Assembly (NCBI GenBank): GCA_045837725.1
Contig: JBEWZL010000132.1
Location: forward strand, 186,001 to 250,000
DNA length: 64,000 bases
Reading direction: 5' to 3'
From: Vermamoeba vermiformis
Taxonomy: Eukaryota
Position 1 is the stretch's first letter; each line of letters starts with the position of its first letter. Made by a program: the position numbers and the translations under genes. The notes below the pieces were generated by a model. It worked only from the letters and a program-made list of their open reading frames with translations, was not told the origin of the DNA and searched no databases. Shown here in pieces: positions 148-57,207 of this stretch.

Positions 148-2459
148 CTACTTGCTGTTGAGTGCTTTGAGTCGTTCTCGCAGTGCATCTAGTCCCTCGT
201 TGTTGGTCTTCACCGTGTCTTCTTCTGAGATCTGCAAGAACCAATCAGATATTTCGTGCGATATATTTAGCAACGATGCGCTATCAATAGTGTTGTACTA
301 ATGTTCAGAAACGCAATGTCTCGTCGCTTTACTTCCTATCACTCGCACGTACCTTCACTTCGTTCTTTTCGTAGCGGAATTTGAGTCCCTCAGGCAGATC
401 TGACTTGGGTTGTGATACAGCGTTGGATTCAGTGCTTGTGGTCGTCGGCTCATCAGACGAACCCTCCAACACGATTCCTGTTACAACTATTAGCGATGCA
501 AAACGCTCGCAGCACATTTGTTTGATTTCCTAAACTAGCAAAAACATCAAAGAATTTATCCGCAAACGGTAAATGGATTGTCAGAAAATTTCTATTCTAA
601 TTCTGTACATACCGTAAAGGTTGTCTTCATGAACCACCGCTGTTTCAGTGGCAGGGGTTGCTTCGCTAACTACTACAGGTTCACTTGCGCGTTTCTTCTC
701 GTATTCTTCGCGACGTTTCTGACACCAGCTGCTGCTGCACTCCAGATTCGGATTCATGCGATAGCTCGGGAAAAAGTTCTTCATCGCGTTGTAGCCAAGG
801 TAATAAGACACTTCACCGAACTGCAATAAATATCTGCGCGCAGGGTCAGTCGCGAGAATTGAGTTCGTAAAGTGTAACAAGAAAATTCCTCAATTTAGTC
901 AATTTACTAAAATTGCGTGGAATATTCAAGCCGAGGTCTAAAAAGAGCGCGGCTATTTCGCCGGCGCGGCTATTTCGCGCATTATTTAACGCGTTCAGTG
1001 AACGATTTTAACAATAAAAAGGTGCCGTGATAAGGAGTGCGGCAGAAATGTTGAAAACCTTTGGAACCAGTGCGAGTAACACGCGACTAAAAATAGCAGC
1101 GCTGTATCTCGTACGGGAGATTACTTACTTGAGCGTGTTCTGCACCAACATGGCCGCGACCATTGACATCGTAGTGGGCAATGAAGCTGCGCACACACCC
1201 TGTGAATGACACGTCAACTGCAGTTCTCGAATGACACTTTGACACGTGATTTGACACCTGTCAGCAGTTCAGACCACTCACCTCACGCTTCAACGTGCGC
1301 TCGTCAATGCCACTGGCAACAATGAGTGGTGGCGCGCATTGAAAGCAGGCTGTGATACCTGGCTCAATGAGCTGAATGTGACCACTCATCGCGTCCTCGG
1401 AGACACCTGACTCCATCCACGGCTGATTTAACTCCACACAGGCCTGGGACACAGCGTTAAAGCAGCTCTATGCGTCATATTTAGTGCTGCCTAGTGTTAC
1501 CTGATTGATGGCCATGCGTGCCTCGAAATTGTCCACGCAGCCCAACACGAGGTCGACTGGCCCCTCTGTCAAACTGCCGTGCTGCAAGCGTTGACAAAAG
1601 TGTGCAAAGTGCTCGACCTAGTGGTGCATGATGAGTTCGTATATTCAATAGTATAATATATATTCGATAGCGTAGTGTGCTGTTGTACCTTGGTGATATT
1701 GTAGTTGTAGATCTCAAACTTAACATCGGGGTTGATTTGTGACAGACTTTGTTGTGCAGCTTCAGTCTTCGTCAGACCAACTTGATTGGGTGTATAGAAC
1801 AGTCTGTATTGTTCGCGGTCAGTAGCCGAATTAAAACCAGATCTGGCGTGAAGATCTTTTGCCCACGTTTATCGTACCTGTTCATGTTGGCGAGCTCGAC
1901 CTTATCATAATCAAATAGCAACAGCTTGCCAATACCGCAGCGCGTCAACATTTCAGCAGCCACTGAACCCACACCACCGAGACCAATGATCGCGACGGAA
2001 AACGAGCGGATTTTCTAAAGGCAAAATTAAAAACTGCTGGCAAATCTTCGCTAATAACTTTTGTGTTGCCGTGTGTAATCTACAGATTAATCGGCAAGAT
2101 ATTCAGAAACACGTAGAATTGAAAGAATTTTGACCAACTTGAATTAGTATGTCAATTTCTGCAAGAGAATCTAATTGCTTAAAACGTACTTCATAATTTT
2201 TTACAATACCCATGCGCTTCAGTGCCATCAATCGACTGTATATAAATGAGAGTGAGTAATTGGATCGACAAGATCTCAAAAATTGTAAAATTAATTTTCT
2301 CCTCATTTAAATAATGTTATACCTGTACGGGTTGCTATCAACCACTTCCTCGCTCATACTTTCAATTTTTTTGCGAATATTGCCCTTCTTCAGAGCTTCC
2401 ACTTCGGATTCCAACTCTTGGATTCGCTTCTTGTAATTCTCAAGTTCTTGCTGACTCAT
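148..2459 (-). CDS. UBA5: UFM1-activating enzyme E1 (multi-exon)
   Basis: Exons give [86 protein letters not shown] and [22 protein letters not shown] at 2459, TAG at 148-150. Confidence 0.95.
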
Positions 2460-2603
2460 GGTGAGGTTGCTGTTATTTAATGAGCTTGATTATGGATGTG
2501 CGAGTGCTCTGATTGAGGTAAATAGGTGCCAAAAAATTAAAATTACTTTATCGATTTTATTTCAATAATCGACCACAGATCCGCAACTTCAAATTCAACC
2601 ACA

Positions 2604-4042
2604 ATGCCTTTCCGTGCCTTTTATATCGATACTGGTGTTGAAGTCTCTGAACAAGACTTGTTAGCCCTTGGAGTTGAACACTTCCAGATCAACGCCGATC
2701 AAGTTGATAAAGAAGGCACTGAGCCCACTCTTGAAAAAATCTGCATTGAACGCAACTACAATTATAAGGATGTGGTAAGTATTATTGTACGAGCTTCGCT
2801 AGTAATTAAGAATATTCTGGATCGTCTGAAAATAATTCCTGAAACAATTCCCGCAGTAATTAATAGCGGTACTAACAGGTCCACACTACCCCTGAAACCT
2901 TGCCTAATTACGAAGAGAAGATGAAGATGTTCTTCCAAGAGTACGTACTTTGTTTCGCCGCGGCGGATCCAATCGCTGTTTAAGAGTGTCAATAGACCTA
3001 CAAAATATTAATACATAATATAATATAGACACTTGCACACAGACGAGGAGATCAGATTGTTCTTGAGTGGCAGTGGTTATTTTGATGTGCGCGACAAAGA
3101 AGACAAGTGGATCCGCATCCACTGCTTTAAGAACGACATGATCGTCTTGGTGCGTATTAGTCTTGATTATACAGCCTGCATTATATTAACAATACACGTA
3201 GCCTGCCGGTATCTATCATCGCTACTCCAATGATGAAAACAAAGGTGGCAAAGTGATGCGTTTCTTCTGCGGTGAGAGCGGATCTGCACGAGACTAAGTA
3301 CGACAGTAATAGCAATACTAACACCACATGATATATAGGTGTGCCTGTTTGGACTCCTCACAACCGCGGCACTGAGACTGATGTCATGTCGCAGCGCAAG
3401 GACTACGTGACTAAAGTGCTCAAGTCTGGTACGAGTCAGCATTAATTTCGTTCACTGAACCATTCGTTCACTGAACACTATCGAAAATTGAATCTTTGCT
3501 TTTACTTGTATAAAAACTAAAACTCTCATTCCGCCAATCTTTGCGCAAATTCTCTAATGACACGTGTCAGCTCCAGTCTCGTACCGCGAAGTGCTGGTCA
3601 AGTCCCCCGCAGAGTTCGAGAGTGAGTTCACTGCTGCACGTGCCACACAACCCGCACAACTGCTCGTCTGGGTCACCGCGGATTGGTGTCCTGACTGCGT
3701 GCAAGCCAAGCCCGTGCTCACCAAGCACTTCAATGAGCTGCAGAATGCTGTCGTGTTGAAGTGCGATGTCGATCGCAACACGTGAGTAATAGCCTTATTT
3801 GGCAAGTGCCTCCGTCACTGACACGTGAGTAGTTGGAAGGGCAATCCAGACTATCCGTATCGCACGCACCCACAGCTCAAAGTACAACGCATTCCCACAC
3901 TGATCAGATTCGGCAAGGTACGCTGATTGACACTTTTGACACTTTAACTGACCTCTCACAGCAAGGACCTCGTGAACGATTGGTGGAAGGTGAGTGCTAC
4001 GACACAGCCCTGGTTGAAGATTTCTTTGCCGTTCAGCTCTAA
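2604..4042 (+). CDS. ADI1: Acireductone dioxygenase (ARD cupin), probably fused to a TXNDC17/TRP14-like thioredoxin domain
   Basis: [30 protein letters not shown] and PVWTPHNR; intron 3429-3570 joins in frame to a WCPDC thioredoxin domain ending at TAA 4042. Confidence 0.88.
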
Positions 4043-13161: not shown

Positions 13162-15114
13162 TCAACGCAAGTACACCAAGAATGCCCCGTCACCGACAAG
13201 TTGATACTCGAGTTGTCTGTTGTGCAACAGATCTTCAACAGCAGGCCGCAGCTTAGCCTTGCCACCCATGCTGTGTTTGCCCGCACCAGTGATCACGCGC
13301 AAGAACTTGGTCTTCGTGTCAGCATAGAGATCGAGCAATTCACGGAGTACTTGGCTCGCTTCTTTGACTTGCAAGCCGTGCAGATCCACTGAGCTGATGG
13401 TCTGACCCTCAGCACGACTAGTGTGGTGTTAGTATATATATTCAATCTATTAGCTGCGATGCTTACTGCAACAAGAAGATGTAATTGGCCAATAACTTGA
13501 CTGCGGCACTCATCTTCACTTCGTAGTCTCGACCCTTGTTGCGCAGTGCATTGGCTGCTGCACCATCGCCGTGACAATACGCGCTGTCGAGCAGTGAGCA
13601 ATCAGCGTGACTAGCAATGAGGTGCGATACATACCTGCAGGCAGCGTGGAAGTACTGATTGCGCGCCCAAATGGACTGTTGAATCACGTGCATTTGTTCT
13701 CGAATCTTCGCGCGCAGGTCAGTGCACGACTGAGATGCAGCACGTGATTTGGGCCCTGGCACAACGGATGTATTGCCTTTTTTGTACATTACCGTCTTGA
13801 AGGGTGCTTCTTTCGGCGCAGAAGTCACCTTCTGACGCGTGTCACTGGTCGATTCAGTCGATGCACGGACTGGTTCTTTTTTGTCCAAATTAGGCAAGTT
13901 GTTGTTGCTGACTGGCGCGTTGTCACCAAGTCCATAAATGGTATTCAAACACTGCACTGTCCTCGCCACGTGAAAGTTATTTTCAGTGAAGACTGCTGCG
14001 AGGATGTCATAGTCTATTTTTGGAAATTGCCGCTGCAACTGGTCTAATTTTAGCTTGGCACTCAACTCCTCGCCGTTGTCCCACTGATTGATGCGCGCTA
14101 CTTGCTGACGATTGCCTAAATTGGTATTGTTGTTGTTGCTGTACACTGCCTTAGCTTTGCGCTTGTTTGAGCTCTTTGAGTTGTTCCGCAGCAGTGTCTC
14201 AACAGCTGCTGGCACATCGCCACTGTGCTCATCGAGTGCGCGTTGCAGTGCCGTGGTGTCGAGTGTCGGGAACATCTCTTGCATCACTGACCAATCACTG
14301 CTCGGCTCGTCGGAAATTTCGTCGTTTGTGCTGGGCTCTGCTAACTGCGCGTGGTGTTAATTGGGTGAATAGCCTAATAAGGAAATCGTACCTCCATAGA
14401 CAGCAAGTGATCGATCGTTTTGCTCAAATCTTTTCCTTGTTCAGTGAAACACGAGATGAGCACGTGATTGTCGTACTGCGGAAATATCGATCGCAAGAAT
14501 TGTTCCGATGTTTCGACACGTGTCAAAGGTGCACTCGTACTGAGAGCGGTCAGCTGAGCGATGCACGCGTCCTCGTTGTAATTCGCCTCTGCCGCTACGA
14601 GTGCAATGATTGGTGCATCGATCACGTGCTTGAATTTGTGCTGCAGTCGCGCGATGAGTGAATCCGAGCTCTTTTTGACCTCTTTCGTCAGCTCTTCTAT
14701 TTGTCGACACACTGCTACTTCATCGCTCTTATTCTCTTCAATTAATAGGCGCAGTAGCTCATCATCGACGAGCTTTTCATCGTAATTGGCGCGCAATCGA
14801 GTGAAAAGCGCATCTGACAAGGAATAATTTAAATTTAAATGTATTATTATTCAGAAGTCTTATTACGTACCAGTGCGCTGTTCGGTCTTTTTCTTGGCAT
14901 CAGCTTCACTGCTCAATTTATCGAGAGCTTTGGTGCACTTGTTAACGTCGTAGTTGTAGTCTTCGAACAGCAGTGCGATAAAGTCGTGGTCGAACTGATC
15001 CTCGTACATATCAGTGAGATAGTCGAGGTTCTCTTGCGCTTTTTTTGACAGCACTTTCGCGCCATCAATGGTAGCAGATGCGCTGCCTGGCTTGGGGTTC
15101 AGCGATTTGCTCAT
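13162..15114 (-). CDS. Multi-CUE plus Smr-domain endonuclease (Cue2/NONU-1/N4BP2-like)
   Basis: Repeated CUE-like units (EMFPTLD..AVETLL, SIFPQYD, RQFPKID) and a C-terminal Smr domain (DLHGLQVKEA, VITGAGKHS). Confidence 0.85.
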
Positions 15115-16290: not shown

Positions 16291-18855
16291 ATGTGGAAGT
16301 GTATTGGCCTGCAGATCTGCAGTCCGTTAGGTAGAGAGTTCGGATCGGCGTTATGCTTGCAATACCGATAGAACTAACATACTTATTTTAATAGCCAATC
16401 AAATTGTGAATAAACGAGTAAATAATGTAAATAGAACAGAGCAACAACGATTATTTAATGTAAAAAACAGAAAAATTAATCAGGTAAGCAGATCCACTTC
16501 AAATTACGATATCTTAATTTCTTTAATTCATAAATATTATAAATAGAATTAAAAAAATGATAAAAACTAAAATTGTATTTAGATCCCCGCTTGGATCCGA
16601 TCGTACTCATCACATCCGAAGTTTGTTAAAGAACAAGAGGAGTTAATAAGAAATCAAGTGTTAGAATATGAAAAGAAAAGGTCAAGTGGTGTAACAGATG
16701 CCGAATTAGCTTCAAATGATTGGCTGTGGCCGCTAGATCGTAAAGTGGATGTACCCCGCGAATTTCCAAACCCGAACGTGGCACTATCAATGCGTCTACT
16801 GGCACAAGAGAGAGCGCAACACACTGGCGAAGAGATTGATATTGAGGATGATGAGGCACTGGCGGACGAAGATATCGATGAGGACGAAGACTTGGACGAG
16901 GACGAAGAGGACGCACACGAGGACCAGGTGGAGGACGAAGAGCACGCGCAGAGTGAGGTGACTGAACACAAAGAAGAGCCTGTTGAGCCCGCACAGCTCA
17001 CCAACACCAAGCCCGCGGTGCCCGTGGCGTGTGGACTGGACGTGTTTGACGCGCGCCTGAGTGCAGCCAATGCGAGTGAGTTCGGTGCACTGGGCTTGAG
17101 ACCAGAGCTCGTGGAAGAGCTGCAGCGCCAGTTCAACATCACACAGCCCAGCGACATTCAGACCGTGAGTGTGCCCGTGGTGCTGCAAGGCCACGACGTG
17201 ATAATTGCAGGTCAGACAGGCACTGGCAAGACCCTCGCCTATCTGCTGCCACTCATGCAACGACTGCGCGCACTGCAGACACGCGCTGATTACAAGCGAC
17301 GGGGTCAGCGCACTCGCGTCATCATTGTCGTGCCCAATCGCGAGCTCGTCACACAGATCGTGGTATGACACCTGTCAAACAGACCGCAGCAGCGATCGAT
17401 TACTAATGACACGTGAGTAGGACGTCGCGTCTAAATTTGACCGCGTAGTGGTGTTAGATCACAACAATTCCATGAAAAAACAGCCTGCAGATCACGTGGT
17501 CGTGTATGGCACTGGTCAGGTACACTACTGGCAGTTAATTATAGAGGTGTTAGAGGCCGCACTAACACTGAATGTTAGGGACTGCGCACCATACGTCGCG
17601 AGGCCATTGACTTGACCAATGGCGTGGAGCTGTTAGTGAGCACCGCCGATCGATTGATGGAGCACGTGACCAACAAGCACCTGTCACTCGAAGACACCGT
17701 GTGCGTGGTGTTCGATGAAGCTGACACGCTGTTCATGAATCCCACGCAGCGACAGCACATTCAAGCCCTGCTCACTGAACTGCGTCACGTGGTTCAGCGA
17801 CGTCACGATACAGGTGCTGCTATTAATAGCAAACGACAGGCCAAGATCGAAAAACTGCAGCGTGCAGTCACGGGCGAAAACTTGCCTAAAAAGGATATCA
17901 GCGTGAGTCAGCCCATGCAGCATCTCTTTGTATCTGCCACAATCTCCCGTGAATTTGCGCAAATGTTGTTAGAGAACTTCAAGGTAAGCACGAACGTTCT
18001 TTCCTAATTTGGCAATCGCTGACAGCCAATCGCAGCACGCCAAGCAAGCCATCACCAGTCACGTGCACAAAACAGTGTCAAAGCTGCGACAAGAGTTCTT
18101 GTTCGGTGCTGCTGGCGACTTCAAGCGACGTGAGTGCTATTTATAGACCACTAATCACGTGACAACCACTGAATGACACGTCTGCAGGTCTGCTGTTTGA
18201 CACGCTGAGCAAGCACAAGAACAAGCGCACGATCATCTTCTGCAACACACTCGAGCACTGCAAGGCTGTCTATCATCTCTTGGACAAAAAAGGCTATTCG
18301 TGCGCCGTCCTGCACGGTGATGCTCCTTCGAAGAGACGCGCCGAACACTATACCTCGTTCAATGCTGGTGAGTGTCGCATATTGATCGCAACGGATGTGG
18401 CCTCGCGTGGTCTGGACATGCGCGCTAACGTCGAGCACGTGATTCTGTATGATTTCCCGCGCAACGCCATCGATTACATTCATCGCATTGGTCGCACAGC
18501 TCGTGCAGGCAATACTGGTTATGTCACTGCATTTGTTGGTCGCGCCGATCAGTCTCTCGCGGAACAGATCAAGGTAAATCAACCGCAAATTCAATTCTCA
18601 AAACTGATTCCTTTGTGTAGAAAGCATATGCTGATGGCAAGAGCTTCGAGGATATATTTAGACGCGTTGGTAAAACGACAGTACGTAATTCTCAGTCTCG
18701 GACAATTAGATCGCACTAACCGGACAATTTTTAATTTGTTGTAGCGCGAGAGAAAGGTCAAACAAAAAACGCCGAAAACGAATAAGAAGCCAACATTTAT
18801 TATTGACAAAGCAGGCAACATTGTAGAGTACACGCCACCCGAGAAACAGAAATAA
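16291..18855 (+). CDS. DEAD-box RNA helicase, probably organellar
   Basis: Q motif PSDIQ, GQTGTGKT, PNREL, DEAD, SAT, TDVASRGLD and HRIGRTAR; 5' exons inferred. Confidence 0.9.
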
Positions 18856-21490: not shown

Positions 21491-21538
21491 CTTCCGATTT
21501 AATACTTCCTGTCCTATGTACATATAAGGCAATGTTCG

Positions 21539-22916
21539 CTATTGTTCGAGCTTTGACAGTTCAATCGCCCTCCGCATGTCCTCGTCCATGTCTTGCATGT
21601 CAAACTCCTCATCACGTGGTGCGTGACTGTGTTCTAATATCGGTGAGCTGTACGATGCCAGCTCATCACGTGATTTTTCATGAATTGGCTGTTGCTCCAC
21701 TTTGGAAATTTCTTCTTTGGATTGATTGACTTCCAAATTTGGCAACAACACCTGGTCAGCGGCTTTCAAAAAAGTGACTTGCTGGTAGATTTCGCGATAC
21801 TCTCGTAACAACAGCGCATTCTCCCTAATGAAGTGTTATTCATGAATCAGCATGTGACACGTGTCATTCGCCGTACTCGTCAAGCGTGTTAATCGCTGTC
21901 ATCAGTCGCTCAATCTCCGCATCATGCTCGTCACACAATGCCACCACAGAGTTGTTGCGCACTGTGTCGTAGGGATTGACGAGCACGTGATCTCCATGCG
22001 CAGCTGGATTCGGAAATTCTCCGATGAGACTGAAATCTTCGTCGGAATAATTAATGTCGTCCAGGTGTCGCTCGAGAGGTTCGTGCAGTGACAGGCCCGT
22101 GTCATTCACGAGCTTGCATTCGATCACGTGAGTGCGCAGTCGTGCCTCGAGTTCTAATAATAGCTCTTTGACTTCCTGATTTGGTAATGTAAATTCTGGC
22201 AAAGTTTTCTGCTCTGACACTTCATCAATCTCGGCATTGAGATCGATCACTTCGTCGTCGGTGCCACCTGTCACGTGACCAGTCAGCGCGGGGTGTCTGC
22301 GGAGAACTGTCGCCGTGTCACCAGAAACAGCACGTGGCACTGCATGCAGCACATAGCCGGCAAAGACTGTGGAATAAATGTGGTGGCGCACGCGCTTCAT
22401 GATCACGAGGGAGAACTGCACGGGAGATTGCGGGAGATCGAGCACGTGATTCATTTGCGACAACACCCAACTGCAGTGCACGTGACTGGCAAGCGTTGCC
22501 GCCAAATCTTTGCGCGAATTCGTGTTGTCAATGTGCGAGACGACGCGATAGCTGCCAAATATAGCATTTCCTTTTTGGGACATTAAGTGCGCATTAGCGT
22601 ACCAATCAGCACCATATGTAATAGACTGTAAATATTGACAGTTAGAGCAGTGAATAGGACACTAAGGCGATATTAAATATGCAGGGAAGATCAATGGGTA
22701 CGGCAGTAAGGCAAATAAAATAATATCGATAATTATAAATTAATTGCCAACACCAGCAAACATCTGACCAATAGTTGCTCCTAAAAATAGCTTGTTACGT
22801 GCCTTCACCACGTATCTGAGGCGCGTAATCTCCTCGCACGTGAGCAGCCCTTCAGTTCCCTCATCGAGTAGCGCGAGTTGCGTGAACAGTGATCGTGGTA
22901 TGACTAGACGATACAT
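21539..22916 (-). CDS. Possible Abraxas-like (inactive MPN) protein with coiled coil and C-terminal UIM
   Basis: EGTEGLL near the N-terminus, GSYRV, coiled coil and terminal DEDMRRAIELSKLE (UIM-like); the gene is clear but the family call is tentative. Confidence 0.45.
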
Positions 22917-24127: not shown

Positions 24128-27100
24128 ATGCAGGCGTTTAATCTGGTCCCTCTCATCGCTGAACGTGATTGGAAATTTGACTCTAAGATCCAATCTGTTG
24201 CCTCGTCTGGTGCGTTGTATTAATTATATTGCTTGTGTATTAATTGCCCGTTAATAAGGAATTATTATAAATTATTTTTGCTGATTAATATGTCTTAATG
24301 ACTTTCAATTTAGATGCGCAATTATACGTGGGCACATCCGATGGAAAATTGATATTATACAGCGTGGAGATCAATAGTGATGATGAAAAGCCCACAGCAC
24401 GAGTCAAACAAGACAAAATTCGAGATCTCGGTCACGGCAAGAAAGCAGTGGTCAAGCTGGAAGTGTTCCGCGAAGTGGGGCTATTAATAGCACTGTGCGA
24501 CGGCTACATTGACGCGCTGAACATGTACAGTCTCGAGCCCGCGACCCCGCTGCCGATCAGCAAGGGCGTGACAGCCTTCACCGTGCACGTGGTGGGGGGC
24601 AGCTACTTTGTGACACTCGAAGTCAAGCGACGACTGGTCATCTACGAGTACACAGGCCGCTACGAACTCATCAAAGAACTGCAGCTCAATGAAGTGCCGC
24701 TCGACCTGGCCTGGATCGGCAGTGCCAAGCTGGTGCTCATGTACAAGAAAGAGTACGTGCTGGTGGACATCAACGACTACCATCACCCGCACAATGTCAA
24801 CACCACGCCCATCACGCTGCTGCCCAATGAGAAGCACCCTGCCATGCGCGTCATTTCTGAGAAAGAAGTGCTGCTCAAACAGGACAGTATCCTAATTAGG
24901 CAATATTATTAGTTGATCTTTGCTTGTTGCGTCATAGTTCTCCTTAATTCTAAAAATAGATCTCGGAGTGTTCCTCGCCCCGTCAGTGCCACCCACCGCA
25001 TCACGTGGCAGCATCAGCTTCAACAAGCCTGCCTCGTTCATGGCATTCAAGCGACCATATATAGTATCTGTCCAAAATAGGCAAATCGAAGTGCACAATC
25101 TGACCAATCAGAAATCAATGCAAGTAATTCCGCTCCCATCCACCGAGTATCTCGGAATATACGATGGTGGCACGTGGCGCTTTGCCGGGGCACCAATCCC
25201 CGCGAGCACACTGACGCTGTGGGCGAGTGATCACGTGACTGCCCTGGTGCCACTGCCCATCGCCGTGCAAGTCACCGCGCTGATTCGAGCGGGCAGTGTC
25301 GATGAGGGACTCGCGCTGTACAAGACCGCGCAAAAAGGAGCACGTGACACGACCCTGACCGCGAGTCGATCACGTGCTGGCGTGGGACCTGCGCAGATCT
25401 ACGACGAACAGCTGGCACAGTTTGAAGAGCTGGCGGGTGACGTGTTGATGGAGAACTTGCGCATTGAACAGGTGAGTGGCACCTGGCACGTGTCGCCGAG
25501 TACTGATCGCTTGCTATATTAGGCAATGGCACACTACAGTCACGCGACACGCTTGGATCCGCGCAAGCTGATTGGTTACTTCCCAGACCTCGTGTCGCGC
25601 TCTAATTCAGTGAACCGCGCAGTGCCGCAGCCGCCAATCACCTACGCGGAGATTTTGAAGCGCAACGGTCAAGCACAGCAAGAGACACGTGTCAAAGAGC
25701 TGACGGCACTCGCCAAGTCATTTTTGATGCGCTATTTAGAGGACATTAAGCGCCAGCGCAAATTCGATGCTGTCACCATCAAGGTATTACCAAATATGGC
25801 AATGATTGACCGCAATCACTCATTTCCTAATTAGGACATTGACGTGGCACTGTTCAAGCTGTACGCGACGGAATATCACCCCGAGGAGATTGCACCGAAT
25901 GCACCGAAGCCAGTGGCACCCCCGTGCGATGTGAATGCTAAAAATATCTCCGATCTGATCACGCAGGACAGCGAGCTAAATATAGAAGAGCTCGAGCAGT
26001 ACTGTCTGCAGGGCCAGTACTACAAGGCGCTGGCACTCATTTATCGCCACACGCACCGCTATCGCAAGGCCCTCGAAGTCTGGTCCAAGTATGCCACTTG
26101 CCTTATTTGGTCATGCGTCACTGACACGCTAATTTTAGACTCGCCACGCACGAGTACGTCGATCCGACCACGCACGGCTTCAGCACCACAGCCCCGCACG
26201 GCGTTCATGAAGCGAGTGAACTGCTGTCGACGGTGAGTGACGTGGAGCTGATCAGCGAGCACGCGCCCTGGCTGCACAAGCTCTCTACCAGGGCACTCGT
26301 CACCGTGCTCACTGCCCCGCGCAATGTGCCACTGCCTCCTCGCGCCGTGCTCTCGTGGATACGCTCCACCACGTGGGGCAATGAATTGGAGGGCACGTGG
26401 CTGGAACACGTGGTGTCGCAGGGACCTCCGCAGGGTTCAGTGAAAGACTGGGAGTGGAGTCACACCGAGCTGGCACTGTGGTACTTGCAACAACTGCGCG
26501 CTCTCACTGGCACCAGCTGTAAGTGATGCTATTTATAGCAACAGGGTCCTGACTTACCATTGCCAAATTAGGGAACAAGACCTTGCCCTCGCGCAGTGAC
26601 TCGACCTCAGCCGCGGCCTCGGCACTCAGCTCCGCAACTGTGCGCGCCAAACTGCAGCGGCTATTAATAGACTCGCGCTACTACAATCCACTCACGGTGC
26701 TGCAGCTCGTGAATGCCATCAGTAATCCCGCTGATTCTCCGCAAGATCGATCGCAAGGGCCGCAACTGACCGAAGAGTGCATTACCTTATATGGCAAGAT
26801 GGGTGACTACGAAAAGGCGCTGGATCTGATCGTGTATCAGCTCAAGGACTACGACAGAGCGGAACAATTCTGCGTGTCTCAAGATGGACATCATGTCGGT
26901 GCAGGTCTGAGTGTGACACCTGTCAACGAGAATGACGCGTCCGCTGCCCAACGACCTCTGCCAGCGAGCAGTGTGATGCTGCTGCACCTGCTCAAGCTGT
27001 ATCTAAAATTAGAACAGTCCGATCCGATCACCAAGTACGTACCACAACGTGTTCTATTTTTAGCAAATGACTGACACGTGACAGATTGCCAGAGCGCGCG

Positions 27101-32555: not shown

Positions 32556-33764
32556 ATGTCGATATTCGTCACGATTCCGAGCTACAGGGACTCGGGTAAG
32601 TGAAGTGCGCGCATAGCACTGCATCCACTAATACACTGTTACAGAGTGTCAGCACACGATTGCAGATCTGCTCCACAAAGCGAAATTTCCGCAGCGCGTA
32701 TCATTTGGAGTCTGCTTTCAATACGACAAGGAGGCAGATCAGCACTGTCTCGCGCACTGGCCCAAAGAAATATTTTCAGAGCAGGTATAATGATCGGGGT
32801 GTATGACTGCAAGTTAAAACTAATATTCGTGGCTTAATACTTAAATTTGCATTATTAATAATTAATTTGACTTCCAGATCCGCGTTGATTACGTGGACTA
32901 CAGAGAAGCCACTGGACCTTGTTGGGCTCGATATAGAGCGCAGCAATTATATCGCGGCGAAGACTACTGGTTCTCTATTGACAGCCACATGCGCGCTGTG
33001 GAGCACTGGGATCAGCTGCTGATCGACTTGTTGCAGCAGTGCAGCTCCAGCAAGGCTATTATAACTGCTTATCCGCACGACTATACACTGCCCAATCAAC
33101 TCTCTGCGTACGTACTTGCACGAGTGAGCACATCCGCGTTGCAATTCTGAGAATTGACCTCTGATTCAGTGAAACACGGCCGATAGTGACCTGCGCCAAG
33201 CCACAGCTCGGGCCCGATCACATGTTGCGCGTTGAAGGCAAGCTATTAGTAGCTCCCACACCGCAGCCAATCCCCGCGCTATTTTGGGTGTCAGGCTTCA
33301 GCTTCTCACGTGCTCAAGCCCTGGTAGAAGTGCCGTACGATCCGCACCTGCCCCAACTGTTCTTCGGCGAGGAGAGCTCGATGACTGCGCGCTTGTGGAC
33401 GAGTGGCTGGGACTTCTACGCGCCTGGTCGCGTGGTGCTGTACCACCTGTGGTCACGTGATCATCGCCCCTCGTTCAGAGAAAACAAAGACATCAATCAC
33501 GCGCAGAAACGCTCGCAGCAACGTGTACATTACATATTGGGAAGGCTTGAGCACGTGGAGGACGAGTCTATCCTGCTAGAATTAGACAAATATGGCATTG
33601 ACACACGTTACAAAACACGTGATTTGGCGGACTTTCAGCGGCACTCTGGTGTCAATTTCCGTACTGGCGAGATCACAGAATACGCACAGCGAGGAGGCGT
33701 GGACAAGAAGCTATTTTTAGACTCCATCTTTGACTTGATAGCACAGTATTCAAATAAACAATGA
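32556..33764 (+). CDS. Skp1-hydroxyproline GlcNAc transferase-like protein (Gnt1/GT60 family)
   Basis: SIFVTIPSYRDSEC, GPCWARY, IDSHMR, EVPYDPHLPQLFFGEE and ARLWTSGWDFY; no signal anchor. Confidence 0.88.
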
Positions 33765-33769
33765 GCCAT

Positions 33770-35130
33770 GGTTTTAATTGGCTTCATTACTCATGTCATT
33801 GACCCAACCTTACTAGTACCATGGAGTTATACATTATAACCTGTTGTTGACCACAATTTCTCGCAGGATTGAGCATAAGGCCCAAATATTCAACATTGAC
33901 ACAAGTGCCAACCATACCTGGCACTCTGGTGTTGTTATTGTTTGCAACTGCCAGGAGAGATTGCCTCACCAGTGTCCTCCAATCTGAAAAGAATGCATGA
34001 ATAAATGAAGGGTCTTTAAGACATGCTGGGGATGGCTCACATCCAGGGAAGGACTTCATCCAACTGCCATACATGCTACCAACCCAGCCAGCTTGAACAA
34101 CTAAGGCCTATTTCTGTTGTAGTGGGGAGAGGCCACTATACCCTCCAATGGCTATGCAAACGCAGCCCTACTGGGAGAAACATGGGGCATTCAAAAGCAA
34201 ATGATGGGATGCTGCCTAAGTGTTGCTCAATAACCAGATCAGCCAGAACAGTCATGTAATACCAAAAAAAGAAGAGATCCAATTCTTCGAGAAGACACTC
34301 CCACAATAAAGCAATGTTCTACTTAGAACGGCGTTGGAGGATCATCTGCCATCCAGTGTGGATGGAAGATGGCCAGTCCGGCTCGGCTCGGTATCTTCTG
34401 GCTATCCGCCGTGTGAAATTGTTTGCAACCACGGAGAGTCCCTTAATCCCACATACTTTTTTGTATGCCTGGACCTGCCAGTGCGAAACCAATGCAGATC
34501 ATGGTTCACCGCCCTCTACCAATAAGAGAGTGGTGAGGCAAATGCAACCCCAATCAGGATTTTTTGCCGACAGCCACTTGTCCGACGGATCATGCCGAGC
34601 TAGTTATCACATCCTGGCTCTTGATCCATCTGGATTGGCATCCTAAAGATGAGAAGCCCAGCCAAGGGCGAGATGTCTGGCCCAGCTAAGTTATCCAGGC
34701 GGACCCAAATATTGTAGTGACATAAATTTGTATTTTTTGGCGGACGAGACGTCCGCCACTACATGATGTATGGTTGGCGGGCACAGTCCGTGGCATATGT
34801 CCAATTTTTGCCGGACAGGATGTCCACCTTAAGAAACAGATTTGACCTCTGTGGTGGGCAAAAATTGTACGTCCACCATTGCTGCTGACCATACATTGGC
34901 ACCCAGGGTACTGTGGCATCTTTGAGCATTCTGGCTGAATGCCTCGCATGTTCTACGAAGAACTCATGAGAACATCTAATCTGACGTCCAAACCCATCAG
35001 CAGCTGCTCACTTGGGCAGGATGACCTCCAAATAGACCATCAACACATCTATACTGTTGCAGGCTTGGATGCTACGAAATTGATTTACACTGTGATTTGG
35101 TGCAATAACCTTAGCTGAGCTGACAAGGAG
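33770..35130. other. CpG-depleted, compositionally foreign insertion (decayed transposon or viral relic?); boundaries approximate
   Basis: 1.4-kb gap between convergent genes; only 3 CpG in 33781-34320; lacks the host palindromes; only broken ORFs. Confidence 0.55.
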
Positions 35131-35154
35131 AGAACAACAACTGTACACGATTTA

Positions 35155-36312
35155 TTACAGACCACTGTATCTAGGGCCATCAATAGGCTCAGGGATCAGC
35201 TTAGTGTATTCTGTGCGCCGTTTGGTCTCGGCTGAGGCGCGCACACGTCGTACAGCGCGTATCACGATCCAGAGCACGAAGAGCACTGCGAACAGACCTC
35301 CCACTACCAGCACGACGTAGAACAGGACAGTGGGTGAGCATTCCTGTTTGATATTATTACATTGAGTTACACGTGCTCGAGCACTAGCCTTAACGTACTG
35401 TTTGTTGGGCAGCAGATGCGAACAGAAAGCTGCAGGGCTCAGGAGTGACCGTGTCCACGAGACAATAGTGATTCATCGGACACGGCGTTGGTTCGAGCAT
35501 GCCCTCGTGCGGACAATAATAGCCGATCGGACACGAATCCGGTTCAGTCATCTGTTGGCGCGGACAATAGCGGCCAGCAGGACAGGGTACAGGTCCTGGC
35601 AGTGCAGTCGAGGGACAGTACCACCGCGCTTGACACGCCACTGGCTCGCGCGTCTCTAGATCCGGACAGTACGTGCCTGCTGCACACGCGCGACACGCTG
35701 CACGCGAAGTAGCGCCGCGATCAGGATTGTAATAGCCCTGGCCACACGACTGACAGCGCACACTGCCATTGCGTGGTTCATATGAGCCTGCGCGACACTC
35801 GGTGCAGTTGAGCGAGCCAGCGCGATCTGCGTAGCTGCCTGCACGACAAGCGAGGCACGCCGAGGCATTGTACTGGTCGTTGTAGGTGCCTAGTGGACAG
35901 AGCGAGCAGTTGAGAGGCATCATACAGTAGCCTGCAGCGCATGTGCCTTCTAAGCGAGCAGTGGATTTGATCAGCTGTTTGTTGGTGCAATTCGCTGCAA
36001 TTTAGAATTAAGACGTGTTAATTTAATAATAATAGCAATAATTATTATGCACCACGCACCTGTTGAATATTCGCCAGGAGAGCAGCGAAGACAAAGCGCA
36101 GTCAAATTTCCTTGCGTGGCATTGAATTGCGTGGCGTTGATCTGCTCGATCACGTGATTGCTGTGCGCTGATTGGTCAGCAAGGTCTATCACGTGCTCTG
36201 CAGTGCGCTTGACATCGTCGATCAGGGTGATCTGCGTGAGAGTTTTGTTGACGACCGTGTGACTCAACACGCACACCCACAGTGCGAGATACAGTGCAGT
36301 GCGCATGTACAT
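35155..36312 (-). CDS. Type I membrane protein with Cys-rich GCC2/GCC3 (ephrin-receptor-like) repeats
   Basis: Signal peptide, repeated CPxGxYCP units, a TM helix and a short tail with YTKL. Confidence 0.85.
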
Positions 36313-36486: not shown

Positions 36487-37523
36487 ATGAATCGCACTGC
36501 TGTTCGTACCGTCGAGAAGCGAGCGCGCAGATCCAACAACACCGCACAACTCGGTGAGTGTTGCTGATCACATATAAATACTAATAATTGTACTATTACA
36601 ATAATTATATAGAATATATTCTTGGAATATTACCACTATTATTCGCATTAATCACGCAACTGCAGAACAGATGGGTGCGCACTACATGGCCGCACTGCCC
36701 GCAGATCTGCGTCCCTCAGTGCCCAAAACACGCAGCATGGAGTCCTATATTAAGAGCTTCATTACGCAGCGCAGTGACGCGCAACAAGTCTACGCGCAGA
36801 AGATCCAGGCCCGCGGTGTGCTGACACTCGACAACCCTGCCACTGCGCCACGACCGGCACGTGATCGCGTGGAGAAGAAGCGACCGCGAGTGCGCGGAGC
36901 TAAAAATAGCCTTGCTGTCACGTGGCAGCTGTGCACCCAACTGCACGCACTGTGGAGCAGTTACATGCGCGACTTGCTCGGTGAGCGCGTGCACGAACAG
37001 GAATTCATGAACAAGGTGCTCAAGGCAGATCTGCACGGCTGTGTGCTCAAAGGTACGTATACCAGGGTATATACCTCGTGTCCAAATATGGTCATAACCG
37101 CCGTGCAGTGATTCAAGCGCGCAATGTGGCGCAGATTGGCGTGGAGGGCGTGGTGCTCAGTGAGAGCGAGCGCTGCTTTCACTTGGCGGTGCTGGCACCT
37201 GGCACCAAGTACATGAAGGACAGTAGTGCCATGCAGACCAGTGACAGTAGTGGCATGCAGACCAGTGACAGTAGTGCCATGCAGACCAGTGACAGTAGTG
37301 CCGCTGCATCACTCCCCACACCAGTGCCGCGCGTGCTCACCGTGCCCAAGCCCCACACCGTGTTCGTGTTTCAATGGGCGGACAGACTCATTACCATATA
37401 TGGCAATCACTTCATTCAGCGCAGCGCCGACCGATCGGCCAAAAAGTACGTCCTTACTTAATTTGGCAAGCCACTCACGAGTCTATTTTTAGATTCAAAG
37501 GCAAAGACACCATCGAATTGTAA
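36487..37523 (+). CDS. POP4: RNase P/MRP subunit p29
   Basis: LHALWSSYM, KADLHG, GVEGVVLSES, VPKPHTVF, IYGNHFIQRSADRSAKK and FKGKDTIEL*. Confidence 0.92.
37219..37302 (+). repeat. 24-bp coding tandem repeat, ~3.5 copies (DSSAMQTS), inside POP4
   Basis: GACAGTAGTGCCATGCAGACCAGT repeated with one mismatch. Confidence 0.9.
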
Positions 37524-39709: not shown

Positions 39710-39761
39710 GCGCTTGCCTTATTTGTACAAATTCTCCCGTGTATCTATAAATAGTCTTTTT

Positions 39762-41845: not shown

Positions 41846-44274
41846 ATGTTGGCCTCTCTCTATCGCGGTGTATCTCGCTCTAAGCTGTGGCGCGGTCAGA
41901 GCAGATCCGCAGCCAAGATCTGCTTGTCACTCACGTACTACTGCACTAATTGCTATGAATATTATATGTGTGACTAATAGTGTGTTATGGACAGAGCGGT
42001 ACGATCTATGAACACCGAAACTAAGCACTCGCGAAAGATGAAACGATCTCTTGAAGAAGTGAACTTAGATTCACCCTACAAATACGCATACTCAGTCACG
42101 AGACATGTACGCATATAATATGGATAGTGTGGACTGGCAGAAAATTATAGAGAATTAATGTAATATTTTTTCAGATGCCTTCGAGTATTAGCAATGCTGT
42201 GTCTGATCCTCCCGTGGCTGTGAAGCAGAACTATTGGGTAAATAATTACTATATTATTATAACGCTTTATTCGCAGTATTTGGGCAACAACAACTCGAAA
42301 CAGCTTGCATCTGATATTTAAATAATTATTAATTGGCGCTATTCACTCAAAGGAAAATCCTGAAATATTGAGTCAACCGACGGGCGATGGTACAACTGAA
42401 GCATGCGTAGTCAATGTCATATTGAACCGTCACCAATATCAGAACTCGCTGGATGCAGATTTCATTTACATTTTGCGCAGTCTGTTGCAGGTACGTGCGA
42501 CTGCTACGACCATTATATATATGTACACATACATAACCCCCCCTCGCAGCGATACGAACACAACACGATGCAGCACACGATGCTGTTGCGCGGACAGAGT
42601 GACGAGTACTACTGCGCGGGACTCGATCTGCTCGCACTGTACCGCGCCAAACAGCTCGGCAATGTCGCACTCGCAGAACTCACCATCAAGGCCCAGCAAG
42701 AGCTCATTGCTGCCATGCACGCGCTGCAGACGCCAGTCATCGCCCCCGTGACAGGTGTCGCGGTCGGTCTAGGAGCCGCACTGAGTGCCCCGCACAGCGC
42801 GCAGATTGTGCTCGCGACTGAGACTGCCGTGTGGTGCGTGCCTGCCACTCAGTTGGGTCACGTGCCTGACGCTGGTCTCACGCACACACTGTCGCGCCTC
42901 GGTGCCGTGGGCATGTACTTGGCACTCACTGGCAAGCGCGTCGAGTCCTCCGATCTGACGTACGTCACGTGATTTTGTGAGCTAATTATAGCAGCACTGA
43001 CACGTGTCATCTGACAGGCACCTCGGCATCGCACAGGGCTACTTGGCGAGTGAAATGATCGAGTCCTTGGAGCGCGAGTTGGGAGGCTTGAAGAGCAGCG
43101 ACCTCACCGCGGTGTGGCGCGCGATTGGCATGGTGGACCAAGAGCCCGAGCCCTACAAGCTCGGCGAATATCGCGAGGTGATTGAGCGCTGTTTCGACAA
43201 GGAATCTGTCGCGGAGATTGTGGCCGCACTCAAAGCCGAGGACAGCGAGTGGAGTGAGCGCGTGTTGACACGTCTAAATAAGGCAAGTCCTGTCGCACTG
43301 CTCGCCACGCACCGAGCTCTGCGCGCAGCACAGCACATGACACTGCACCAATGTCTCACGATGGAGTTCAATATCACACAGCGCCTGATGGTACGGTACT
43401 GCGATTGACACGTGTCAAACAGGTGACTAACAGCCACACACAGCGCACCAAGGACTATTGGGAGGGCATTGAAGCACGTGTGGTCGAGGGCAGAGAGGCC
43501 GTGTGGTCCTACGACTCGCTCGATGCCGTGCCCAGTGCGGTGATTGACGCGCTGTTCACTGAAAACAAAGTGACACCCGTGCACACATCACGTGACGCGG
43601 TCAAGATGTTGCACCCGTACAACAATGCCACCGTGGACCCCAAGAGCAGTGCCCCCGCTGGTGTGCGCTTCCAATCCGTGACGAGCAGTGCCGCACTCGA
43701 ACAGTTGCTGCAGACACCGCAAGAAGTGGATCTGAGTGCACTGCCTGCTGCGTATTGGAGTCTGGAGCTCGTGCCACCACCCCTCCGACCTCGTGCCGAC
43801 CAACAGCGCGCTAAAGACGATTTGCTCGCGTCAGATCCGCTGTCCGAGGTCGAGAAGTACTTGGAGAACATGAACCCCGAGAAGAACGACAGATCTGCCA
43901 CGCCCGAACAGATGCGCGAGGAGTTGAAGAAAGAGCTTGAATTCAGACCCAATATACTCGCCAATTACGACACATTCGAGTACTCACTGCGCGAATTGCT
44001 CTCATCGCAGGCCTTCAGAGAGCGACCAGCCATGTTCAGACCCGTCGCGCCACCCAAGGGCTTCAGTCCTGGTCTGAGCACGGTGCCGGTGCTGAGCAAC
44101 TTTGTCGTCAAAGAAGAAGACGTGCAGCTGCCGTGCTTGTTGCGCGAGAAGAATCCATTCACCAACTTGGAAGAGGTGCCTGACAAGCCGCGTGCTGCGA
44201 AGAGCGAAGAAGAGACGAGCGGTGAGACAGCTGAGGGTGAGTCAGCACCTGAGGGCGAGGAGAAGAAAGAATAG
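41846..44274 (+). CDS. HIBCH-like crotonase-fold protein with C-terminal extension (possible mitoribosomal mS47)
   Basis: VILNRH..QNSL, YCAGLDL, GMYLALTG, IERCF..SVAEIV, SPVAL and DYWEGIEA. Confidence 0.8.
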
Positions 44275-53243: not shown

Positions 53244-54313
53244 TTAGTTCTTGCAACAGCCACCCTTCTCTGTCGTCGTGTTGGTCGGCTCTTCAATAAT
53301 AATTCTGGGCTTCGTAGTCGCGCTGGGCAGCTTGGTGGCACTGGACTCGCGCTCGACAATGCCTGTGGACGATAATTACGGACTGTTAGGTACTGCCCTG
53401 TTAGGTATACGTTCGCGCTTGTACGTACGCTTGGTGAGATCCAAGAACAGTTCAGCAATGCCTTTGTCTAGCTTCGCAGAGGTGTGGTAGTGTTTCGCTC
53501 CGACACTCGCAGCATATCTAATAGGAAAGAATAGGGCTTAGTCTCAGTGTCACCGATAGAGTCGCTGCACGTACTTCTCGGCCTCGTCCACGGTGACCAC
53601 GCGATTAGCTTCAAGATCGATCTTGTTGCCCACAATGGCGAGTTCAATGTCTTTGCCGAGCATTTTGCGCAGCTCTTTGACCCAGTTCTGTACGCGCACA
53701 AATGAATTGCGATCTGTAATGTCATACACGAGAATAGCACCTAATGCAACTCATTAAGCACTAGCAATAAGTACAATAAGATGGTGATGGCACGTACCAT
53801 TAGAGTCGCGATAGTAAATAGGACCTAACGAGCTGTAAACGAAAATAAATTAGTGGATCTGGCGCGAATGGTGTTAAATAATAATATTTATTAACAAACG
53901 GTACTATAGAAATAATAATATTATTTTAATTAGTGACTTACTGAAATCTTTCTTGTCCTGCTGTGTCCTATAATTGAAACAAATATTAGTCGAAAATTAC
54001 AGCGAATAGTCTCAAAATATGCTTATAATTATTAATAAAATAGCAGTGCGTATTTACCCAAATAGCCAAGTTTGCACGCTTGCCATCCGGCAGATTTATG
54101 CGTTTATTTTGGTACGAGGCTTGCAATGTTGTTTCGTGTGTAGGATTGAATTTGTTGACTGTAAATCGCAGAAATAATGATGTCTTGCCCACACTACCTA
54201 TTAATAGCATCGAGGAGTTATAATTTTGCTTGCCACAATTAAAAGAATCATTTTTGAGGTCGATCCGCACCTTCACCGAGTAGTACGACTTTATATTGCT
54301 TTAAATCTGCCAT
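53244..54313 (-). CDS. RAB21: Rab21-like small GTPase
   Basis: KVVLLGEGSVGKTSL, TTLQASY, WDTAGQERF..LGPIYYRDSNGA, GNKIDL and GGCCKN*. Confidence 0.92.
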
Positions 54314-55850: not shown

Positions 55851-56975
55851 TTATTTGTTGCATTTACATGTCGCTGATGTGCCACAGTCACAAAAGAATC
55901 TGAAGAACAGATCAGTACCAGACCACGCGTCAGTGCAATAGCTACATACCCTGTGGATGTCACTGGCTCACTCAGCTTGTGGCCTGCGTGACAAATGCGT
56001 GCACAAACATCGCAACAGCCCTCAGAGTCGATCAGGCCACACGTGTAGCACTGGAACCAGACCTGTGGCGCGTATTCACGACCAGTGGCAGTGAATGTGC
56101 ACTTGTTGTTCTTGCGCGCATTCTCGACGCGTTGTGTCATCGTGTTCTGCTTCTCTTTGGCAATGGCCTGGCCCAGAGTCTCCATGATGAACTCCATCTG
56201 TGCATTGCTGATGGGTGCGTCAATGTCAGGGTCCTCCATGTGTTCGAACAACCACTCCATGGCGAGGTCAGGGTTCATGCTGTGACACGTGTCAATCACC
56301 GAGTGCTAGTCGACTGTCAAAGTGTCACTTACGAATTGAGCAGCAAGGCTTTGTTAGCTCTGTTGGCAGGGAAGCCCATGTCAATCATGGTGTTGAGGGC
56401 CTGCTCTGCGTGTGGGAATGCGCGCTTGATCTCTTGCTGTATTCGCTGTGCGGGTGTGAGCTGTGGTGGAGGGGGCATAAAGGACGAAACTATGTCCTGC
56501 ACCATGCTCTGGATCTGCTCTGTGGTAGGCTGGGGTGCCACAGGCTGTCAAACAGTGTCAGTTAGATAACACGTGCTATATATAAGCTCCTTACTGTCTG
56601 TGGTGGCGGTGCTTCAACTTTCGGCTTGGCTGTCAGCTGCAGAAATTTGAGTTGAATTCGTCGTGGTGCTAGTCTTCAATTACTTACTGAGTATAAAAAC
56701 AGCACGTGATCGTTTTCATTTACTGGCCGAAGTCCTTGTTCATCTGTAATATCTCTTCCTTGAAAAATCAATTTGGTTTCTGGTGGGATGTACAGTCCTT
56801 TGGTCGACAAAATTGCTTTAATTTTATTTTTGATGGCATTGATCTAAAATATATTTTCATTAATTATGTGATATTTTAAAATTGAGCAATTAAATTTGTT
56901 AATTACCCCTTCATTTTTCTCGACTTGAATTCTAAACGGATCTTTGACTGCCACTGTGCGCACCCAAATGTTCAT
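55851..56975 (-). CDS. UBL-UBA-UBR-box protein (UBAC1-like N-terminal half)
   Basis: KLIFQGRDI (UBL), MIDMGFP..ANKALLLN..AMEWLFEH.EDPDID (UBA) and CTF..Q.WFQCYTC..CCDVCARICHAGH..FFCDCG (UBR box). Confidence 0.85.
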
Positions 56976-57207
56976 ATTGTATTAATTAAGTATACTACTG
57001 TAGTTAACTCACCAAACACTGTGCTGTGTTGGTATTGCGGTGTGAAAATTTCGAATTTGAACAACAGTACGGAGCACAATAACTAGCTCAGTTCTCAGAA
57101 TTGAAATGTGTGCTCTATTGTAATGAATACTAGCTATTAATAGGCGCTGTTAGGTAAGTGGTGATTTTAATTACAAAGTGCTCGTTGTTGCAGTACACTC
57201 TCGTCGT

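Follow-up and report, generated by a model that had tools for sequence, protein, structure and literature searches.

Transcription-factor-type motifs are concentrated in gene bodies around a putative short centromere of Vermamoeba vermiformis

The sites of the MADS factors MEF2 and SRF/Mcm1 are described by the consensus sequences CTA(A/T)4TAG and CC(A/T)6GG, and a study on Dictyostelium (PMC3640940), which gives the MEF2 consensus, reports two SRF-like and two MEF2-like genes in this organism. The same consensus sequences and the same gene numbers are found in the amoebozoan Vermamoeba vermiformis, where we analysed a window of 64 kb (the whole stretch, positions 186001-250000 of contig C132). 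Here, however, the sites lie in gene bodies and away from promoters, they belong to several motif families, and they follow the distance to a short core, a putative centromere, rather than a regulon.

Other described systems share some of these features. In budding yeast, an E-box site of the Cbf1/CDEI system is tied to a short centromere, and convergent genes are found at the borders of the pericentromere (PMC9371891 and PMC7614391). Yeast has one CDEI in a centromere of 120 bp, whereas the several families of sites in Vermamoeba, with hundreds of members, occupy exons over approx. 80 kb outside the core. The centromeres of Dictyostelium, also an amoebozoan, are marked by the confined and methylated transposon DIRS-1 (PMC13510849), and the Vermamoeba core, which carries a confined transposon as well, may likewise be methylated. 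Nevertheless, the DIRS-1 centromeres are telocentric clusters of retrotransposons, while the Vermamoeba cores are internal, measure 1-4 kb and contain an inverted-repeat element of 650 bp. Bacterial DNA uptake sequences also accumulate in coding DNA, with an approx. twofold rise of the encoded tripeptides (PMC2817400); in contrast, Vermamoeba has at least six motif families of eukaryotic factor type, a tripeptide excess of 5-10-fold and a steep positional gradient around the cores. The PATCs of Caenorhabditis elegans, periodic A/T clusters in introns, are DNA signals of gene bodies for which a protective role has been proposed where genes lie in repressive parts of chromosomes; the Vermamoeba sites are, unlike PATCs, aperiodic factor sites, and the exons are rewritten too. 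HIP1 and Chi are further bacterial motif analogues. Hi-C did not locate the centromeres of Acanthamoeba (PMC9528979), and a 2026 centromere atlas states that it has no representative of the Amoebozoa (10.64898/2026.09.17.752431). Our literature search, with poor coverage of subscription journals, yielded no description of factor-site carpets around centromeres. Taken individually, these predicted sites are ordinary MEF2 and SRF motifs; for a multi-factor carpet in exons that is graded with respect to a putative centromere, the systems above are no more than partial analogues.

The V. vermiformis genome (43.3 Mb in 309 contigs that are not telomere-to-telomere) has short introns and TTAGGG telomeres, and approx. 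0.9 Mb of its 43 Mb was covered at the sequence level. The window contains 31 copies of CTA(A/T)4TAG, when 100 dinucleotide shuffles give 0.60 on average and a maximum of 3. The initial annotation had reported approx. 27 copies against roughly 1-2 expected. All 28 coordinates that it gave (13, eight in a NOT4-like gene and 7 more) carry the motif, and the excess is real; three copies, at 22154, 25976 and 27003, had been overlooked. The motif ranks first among all 64 palindromes of the form XYZ-W4 (W being A or T), and it occurs 31 times with the exact four-base spacer versus 4 times as CTA-W3-TAG and 0 as CTA-W5-TAG. The matched 10-mer CAT(A/T)4ATG is found once in the window; genome-wide, CTA(A/T)4TAG occurs 4865 times versus 1515, 1510 and 1784 for the GAT-, CAT- and GTA-W4 controls, so that the lack of an excess over matched 10-mers, named in the initial annotation as refuting, is not seen. 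The density in the window, 484 per Mb, is approx. four times the genome mean of 112 per Mb (4865 in 43.3 Mb). Sixteen of the 31 sites are coding, one lies across the stop codon of the NOT4-like gene, ten are intronic, with four of these providing the AG of the 3' splice site, and four are in the 3' untranslated region or spacer.

Several properties of the motif are those of a protein-binding site. In 167 kb of motif-rich DNA the exact 10-mer was counted 106 times, versus 0-19 for each of its 22 single-mismatch variants. A sample of 869 kb contained 249 sites, in which 417 of 498 half-sites are flanked by G/T, versus 91 of 170 in controls; the four central bases are AAAA or TTTT in 103 uses and TATA or ATAT in 4. 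The same flank preference, G/T before and A/C after, is seen genome-wide, with 1143 copies of KCTATTTWTAGM versus 107 of the reversed form; MEF2 matrices in databases prefer G/T before and A/C after the site. The search for MADS genes proposed in the initial annotation gave two MEF2-like and two SRF-like genes, and an exon on contig C87 matches MEF2A at 1.6e-30 and SRF at 3e-5; an SRF-like gene is located on C294. Identical MEF2 proteins are present in transcriptome-derived sets, and the closest named non-animal match is from Planoprotostelium (81%). Genes of the TALE (10 hits) and bHLH (5 hits) classes are also encoded. The published consensus (PMC3640940), the flank preference and the MEF2 gene thus uphold the earlier assignment to the type II MADS (MEF2) consensus, and CTA(A/T)4TAG is here a predicted site of protein type, namely MEF2-type. 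It is likely that MEF2, SRF, bHLH and TALE proteins occupy these putative sites.

MEF2 is one of at least six transcription-factor-type motif families that share this pattern. CC(A/T)6GG occurs genome-wide 9040 times versus 1887 for the reversed form, and its sites have TT(T/G) flanks and an AT core, as in SRF-type sites; 26 of them lie in the window between 3793 and 47965 (the first starting at 3793 and the last at 47956), where the spacer controls CC-W5-GG and CC-W7-GG number 3 and 1. The TALE-type site TGACA-SS-TGTCA (S being C or G) is present 16 times in the window, between 1252 and 56294, and in 220 kb of C132, 28 of 31 pairs of TGACA half-sites with spacers of 0-5 have a gap of exactly two bases. 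TGACACCTGTCA was counted 1060 times genome-wide versus 1. The E-box CACGTG, with 119 copies in the whole window, is likewise in excess, as are CAGATCTG, CCAATCA and TTCASTGAA. We take the non-MADS motifs to be those of TALE, bHLH, GATA, NF-Y and STAT/CudA-like factors. The initial annotation had suggested that MADS proteins act here as general chromatin organisers rather than as promoter-specific factors. The sites are indeed not promoter elements; a role specific to MADS proteins is not supported, given that at least five other factor-type motifs behave alike, nor is a general role throughout the genome, the excess being concentrated in one domain per large contig, around a repeat-marked core.

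In the window this domain, a putative pericentromere, extends approx. from 10000 to 54000 with gradual edges, contains mostly conserved housekeeping genes, and surrounds a core at 33765..35154. Its content of G+C (GC) is 0.52-0.54 at the peak versus approx. 0.40 in the flanks, and the peaks of MEF2, SRF, E-box and TALE-type motifs coincide. On C132, C3 and C11 the motifs and GC form a single bell-shaped domain of 50-90 kb, with edges chosen by eye, and listings of three patterns revealed one main cluster each on C3, C8, C11, C12, C13 and C30 and none on C6. Genome-wide, 163 strong MEF2 sites were listed (100 of the 125 in one listing plus 63 of 63 in another), 120 of them on contigs with a core mapped at the time of the count. 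Within 40 kb of a core are 92 of these 120, 42 to the left and 50 to the right; for contigs of known size the figure is 66 of 80 versus 19.4 expected. MEF2 density per 10 kb peaks close to the core (15 at a distance of 2-5 kb), is down to background by 40 kb and amounts to 0.3 between 40 and 50 kb, GC decreases from 0.52 near the core to 0.40 beyond 100 kb, and even inside 45 kb the motif density of genes tracks the distance to the core (rho -0.50, 75 genes). Longest exons matching Pfam are 36 of 69 in domains versus 29 of 88 on arms (88 of the 128 arm exons were queried). Gene class alone was rejected as the cause, because conserved genes located 95-260 kb from cores carry just 0.3-1.3 motifs per kb, and so was a fixed distance to the telomere, which varies from approx. 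36 kb (C78) to approx. 254 kb (C232).

Within the domains, the split between coding, intron and intergenic DNA that the initial annotation had proposed showed that the sites are chiefly in gene bodies. The coding sequence of the domains (132 kb) has 68 MEF2 sites, their introns (28 kb) have 34 and their spacers (17 kb) 7; the corresponding figures for the arms are 14 (233 kb), 16 (91 kb) and 5 (35 kb). The gene models come from a small, purpose-written gene finder complemented with RNA joints, and some genes are over-joined; its recovery of nine RNA-supported introns is no independent check, because the gene finder was seeded with them. When synonymous codons were shuffled within each of 80 domain genes (100 rounds), the observed numbers exceeded the shuffled ones for MEF2 (67 versus 1.4), SRF (62 versus 5.2), TALE-type (36 versus 0.6) and E-box motifs (336 versus 80.5), and pooled control motifs gave 5 versus 3.3. 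Shuffling the order of codons in the domain genes lowers the E-box count to 14.5, which implies that the amino acids are affected too. Accordingly enriched tripeptides are HVI (41 observed versus 4.0 expected), HVT (48 versus 5.8) and SRD (48 versus 10.0); together with DHV they are 5-10-fold over expectation in domain proteins and outside the top tripeptides on the arms. MEF2 sites also contain 30 of 145 CTA codons.

These sites do not show the enrichment upstream of genes or at gene starts that is expected of promoter cis-regulatory elements: the motif density per kb is 0.45 in divergent spacers (2 in 4413 bases), rises to 1.25 over the first 200 bases and reaches 6-9 past base 800. Sites are fewer where RPL18-like codons, a hand-picked set, are frequent in a gene (rho -0.40, 65 genes), and the five introns of such genes, a small sample, have 0 sites in 316 bases versus 4.5 expected. 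A three-repeat Myb gene (10323-12820) and RPL18 (52030-53029) have none of the scored motifs, though they lie 18-24 kb from the core. Among the pooled sites no periodic spacing was detected up to 600 bases, with a slight bump at 120-160. The first 400 bases of genes, e.g., window 28960-29430, are motif-poor and AT- and ApT-rich (8-9% ApT versus 5% in domain gene bodies); such AT-rich 5' ends resemble the N6-methyladenine zone of other protists. CCGG is depleted in domain coding sequence (84 versus 301 after synonymous shuffle) and on the arms (164 versus 323), and domains also show a stronger depletion of the telomere word GGGTTA than the arms do. No orthologous sequence of a close relative was retrieved with the C-terminal part of NOT4 as query. 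With the RRM as query, 79 loci of distant eukaryotes (35-52% identity) were obtained, which lack a motif excess (MEF2 8 in 431 kb); they are a weak control because NOT4 need not sit near a centromere elsewhere.

The core of the window, a putative short centromere of 1.4 kb, lies between two convergent genes: a GlcNAc-transferase gene (PF11397; 32556..33764, plus strand) ends at its left edge, and a gene for a Cys-rich membrane protein with spliced RNA (35155..36306, minus strand) ends at its right edge. Its observed/expected ratio of CpG is 0.42 and it has none of the four main motifs. RNA depth from four runs is zero in the bin 34301-34964 and almost none in 33637-34300. The stretch 33765-35105 was at first read as a polymorphic insertion, a reading that was later dropped. 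In the three sequenced domains (C132, C3 and C11), the middle is a gap of 1.3-1.8 kb that shares short repeats. The cores carry an element resembling a miniature inverted-repeat transposable element, of approx. 650 bp when whole, with terminal inverted repeats of 55 bp and one to three decayed copies per core; the window core retains just one end, a remnant of the terminal inverted repeat at 34758..34836 (plus strand) that matches many other contigs.

The genome was queried with the gap sequence and four short patterns, and predicted sites were then fetched. The element is present on 67 contigs, at a single locus in each (span of up to approx. 10 kb) and never at two; about a dozen of these 67 loci rest on one or two exact 14-16-mer matches, and several of the contigs are very short or stop at the core. 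Predictions of further cores were borne out on C12 and C30, where the stretches fetched contained one, and on C121, where a core lies at 306-308 kb beside its cluster. All 37 of the fetched tiles listed contain a segment of 1.2-4 kb with CpG observed/expected of 0.30-0.57, GC of 0.39-0.46 and 0-5 motifs; flanks in the 35 tiles that have real ones show CpG of 0.9-1.2 and GC of 0.47-0.58, and the tiles of C14 and C273 consist almost entirely of core sequence. The neighbouring genes are convergent for 25 of 33 cores, versus 37 of 142 ordinary spacers, and cores are internal, at position 0.15-0.50 of the 23 contigs that measure 300 kb or more. Segments poor in CpG are seen at retrotransposons of the arms too, and the element itself is confined to cores.

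Other searches concerned the contents of the core. An open reading frame (ORF) of 172 residues in the C3 core (L039:6297-6815) is identical in the tiny contig C14 and has weak relatives only in the cores of C282, C7 and C142; it gave no match in Pfam or databases. The parent transposase of the element was not identified, ten copies of the element showed no evident target-site duplication, four core-bearing loci contained no Rfam family, and two contigs showed no consistent switch of GC or AT skew, as at a replication origin, at the core. On C205 there is a CenH3-like gene with a loop-1 insertion, whose best PDB hits are Cse4/Cnp1 at 3.6e-19 versus H3 at 2e-15, and DNMT1-like genes are also encoded. 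Several divergent H3 genes (C83, C205, C244 and C149) were seen as well, three of which have a loop-1 insertion, and another H3 variant is present in five copies close to the starts of contigs. The likeliest identity of the core is a short regional centromere, which we regard as quite probable because of the single internal locus per contig, the loss of CpG in a genome with DNMT1-like genes, the confined transposon and the CenH3-like gene. About 60 cores in 43 Mb would give chromosomes of approx. 0.7 Mb, a size that matches the largest contigs (0.61-0.80 Mb).

The explanation that we favour, with a probability of approx. 0.45, is that weak selection for factor occupancy keeps centromeric chromatin out of the flanking housekeeping genes. 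The core would be methylated and would carry CenH3, and the MEF2, SRF, bHLH and TALE factors would occupy the putative sites in nearby gene bodies; once bound, they would stop the spreading of centromeric chromatin into the housekeeping genes. Weak and additive selection on total occupancy would have built the carpet, with sites accumulating even at the cost of altered codons and amino acids, and promoters and heavily transcribed genes would need no such protection. The carpet requires a positive force, given that a 48-fold excess is beyond what tolerance alone can give, and selection on occupancy would explain why many families are involved, why their density is graded, and why promoters and busy genes are spared. 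We tentatively extend this view, with the odds somewhat against it, to approx. 60 tiny transposon-marked centromeres, each of which may be fenced by an 80-kb carpet of factor sites in the exons and introns of essential genes, general factors forming a distributed boundary and the proteome being rewritten in the process.

Several observations weigh against selection on occupancy or against the description of the core on which it leans. Coding sequence on the arms already shows a 2-35-fold enrichment of these motifs (MEF2 11 versus 1.3) and the k-mer biases of domains and arms correlate at 0.76-0.94, so that a genome-wide bias amplified near the core, without function, fits equally well. GC follows the same geometry (fourfold sites 0.70 versus 0.49, introns 0.44 versus 0.34), and such a gradient is classically taken to indicate biased conversion. 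The model is also demanding, as it calls for weak selection on thousands of sites where recombination is usually low. Moreover, 21 of the 120 strong MEF2 sites lie more than 100 kb from a core, and no core was found in the domain-like stretch C198:10-38 kb. The gene finder labels 38% of core bases as coding, and calling the core gene-free depends on one core without RNA depth and one core ORF without Pfam hits. It was also considered that flanking genes avoid core-like words; this was rejected, the correlation being slightly positive.

Molecular drive, the main alternative, which seems to us less likely than selection, would produce the carpet by frequent biased conversion or repair near the core, with factor-bound alleles being cut or mutated less and acting as donors, and with G/C favoured. 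Strong sites would then accumulate where the protein tolerates them, and would be purged from promoters and be missing from heavily transcribed genes, where the factors are evicted. The joint rise of unrelated factor families, with GC on the same gradient, speaks for this process, as do the weaker arm-wide bias of the same kind, the lack of periodic spacing or of a clear orientation pattern, and two SPO11/TP6A-like genes; uptake sequences, with motifs in coding DNA that raise tripeptide frequencies, are a precedent (PMC2817400). Intergenic GC, in contrast, barely moves (0.39 versus 0.37) and that of the core is approx. 0.42, while fourfold sites reach 0.70, and the literature search yielded no paper on occupancy-biased conversion. 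To our knowledge conversion of this kind and strength has not been shown, and the usually low crossing over at centromeres also counts against drive. Drive would explain the same features as selection on occupancy, and sequence alone does not separate the two. A further, improbable alternative leaves the carpet real and dependent on position but takes the core for another unique chromosomal site targeted by the transposon; this could be an origin of replication that is dominant and early, a centre for pairing or recombination, or a nuclear anchor. The link to centromeres is made by sequence evidence only, convergent spacers are also those that tolerate insertions best, and GC-rich, gene-dense flanks are unlike many described pericentromeres; nevertheless, the one internal locus per contig, the CpG loss and the confined transposon resemble the methylated DIRS-1 centromeres (PMC13510849), and neither the absence of a consistent skew switch on two contigs nor a telomere distance of approx. 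36 kb to approx. 254 kb agrees with such a site.

Still less probable is a mechanical role, in which the factors would be roadblocks to transcription entering the core, or cohesin-loop anchors, in the manner of Cbf1 and over tens of kb. The commonest motif is the Cbf1-type E-box, flanking genes aim into the core in 25 of 33 cases, strongly biased-codon genes are without sites, and Cbf1 is a roadblock in yeast (PMC9371891). Nevertheless, the sites are nearly absent from the core itself (0-5 per core), and genes directed towards and away from it bear a similar load: up to a distance of 10 kb, 34.0 kb of the former have 228 sites and 21.6 kb of the latter have 116, and farther out the counts are 198 (77.3 kb) and 215 (59.5 kb), respectively. 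Ordinary causes, i.e., promoter regulation by MEF2, a branch-point plus acceptor signal (CTAAT...TAG), a low-complexity Asn/Ser repeat of NOT4, or base composition, are largely refuted and very improbable. It is true that 4 of the 31 window sites end at a 3' splice AG and that the NOT4 copies can come from tandem duplication, one RNA run having one more; however, 16 of the 31 are coding, this AT-rich motif peaks in GC-rich DNA, the excess persists under synonymous and codon-order shuffles, divergent promoter spacers hold 2 motifs in 4413 bases, and arm introns, which share the splice signals, have 1.8 sites per 10 kb versus 12.0 in domain introns.

The distribution of the window sites can be followed along the genes, for which the RNA evidence consisted of spliced contigs and depth from the four runs (X1 and X2 among them); 40 of 654 differences were listed. 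Run X21 contains a relative of 85-90% identity. To the left, MEF2 sites lie at 1087..1096, in an uncertain predicted intron of a minus-strand gene; at 14044..14053, in the coding sequence of a minus-strand CUE-domain gene; at 17820..17829, in that of a DEAD-box gene, where it is translated as A-I-N-S; at 18137..18146, in a predicted intron; at 22154..22163, in the coding sequence of a minus-strand gene; and at 22781..22790, in the RNA-supported minus-strand intron 22626-22802. The Vps39-like gene (24134..27487, plus strand, 5' end approximate), with CNH and zf-Vps39_C domains and introns defined from RNA, has eight MEF2 sites, together with several of the SRF, E-box and TALE types, distributed over its exons and introns. 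Four of its MEF2 sites are coding: 24481..24490 and 26661..26670, both read in frame as CTA TTA ATA, as noted in the initial annotation, 25976..25985 (L-N-I-E) and 27003..27012 (L-K-L-E). Two end in a 3' splice AG, that at 24950..24959 in a predicted intron and that at 26129..26138 in the RNA-confirmed intron 26089-26138; the others are 26529..26538, in the confirmed intron 26519-26571, whose end is an SRF-type site, and 27054..27063, in the confirmed intron 27035-27084. Upstream of this gene, 23030-24064 is a separate inverted-repeat element of 1 kb with an 8-base target duplication; the strain of run X1 may have an empty site here, as indicated by the end of one of its contigs. Two sites (27513 and 27608; 27513..27617) are in the 3' spacer between convergent genes.

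The NOT4-like gene (29088..32475, plus strand) has an RRM domain by Pfam; its RING domain and the name NOT4 are our assignment. Its eight MEF2 sites span 30926..32479 (30926, 30947, 31034, 31076, 31532, 31856, 32132, and 32470 across the stop codon) and are translated as A-N-N-S/R and A-K-N-S. There is a frame shift at 30567, where the RNA contigs of runs X1 and X2 lack one base; the probable cause is an assembly error of one base, or else a rare allele. At 30922, run X1 has an extra tandem unit of 15 bases that contains one more MEF2 site (A-N-N-S). Closest to the core, at 45 bases, is the coding site 33711..33720 (L-F-L-D). On its other side are a coding site in a POP4/p29-like gene (36900..36909, A-K-N-S); one that ends in the 3' splice AG of the RNA-confirmed intron 37446-37492 (37483..37492); one in a convergent 3' spacer (39745..39754); one in a predicted intron, adjoining a TALE-type site (42982..42991); one in a Rab-like gene on the minus strand, within an intron whose 3' splice site it probably forms (54198..54207); and an intergenic one (57134..57143). 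An exon of the POP4-like gene has a short tandem repeat, D-S-S-x-M-Q-T-S, at 37215-37310, with a shorter form in run X2.

Away from the cores, minor clusters with GC of approx. 0.40 and no core were seen at C209:590-610 kb, C121:382-402 kb and C236:270-290 kb, and also at C3:240-250 kb; they are possibly relics of lost centromeres. The C209 cluster has a CpG-poor segment of 1.4 kb (601.6-603.0 kb) with no match to the element. Some arm genes are bacterial-like or unusual, among them two GmrSD-type ORFs, a transketolase with a long exon and a SIR2-like domain (including C132:178-183 kb and C132:265-267 kb). The arms also have strongly CpG-poor segments and retrotransposon-like ORFs (C3:1-5 kb, C132:106-120 kb and C3:91-94 kb), which we take to be of the tyrosine-recombinase and LINE-like (long interspersed nuclear element) types.

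The present results provide coordinates for approx. 60 candidate centromeres in a supergroup absent from the recent atlas, which makes the proposal directly testable. They also show coding sequence reshaped by chromosome position, in which rare codons and His-Val, Ser-Arg-Asp and Ala-Asn-Asn-Ser peptides have their explanation in DNA motifs and not in the protein. If the carpet is functional, it would represent a new way of confining a centromere; if it is neutral, it would be a eukaryotic molecular drive for factor-bound alleles. Either outcome affects the reading of motif scans, codon bias and selection tests in protist genomes.

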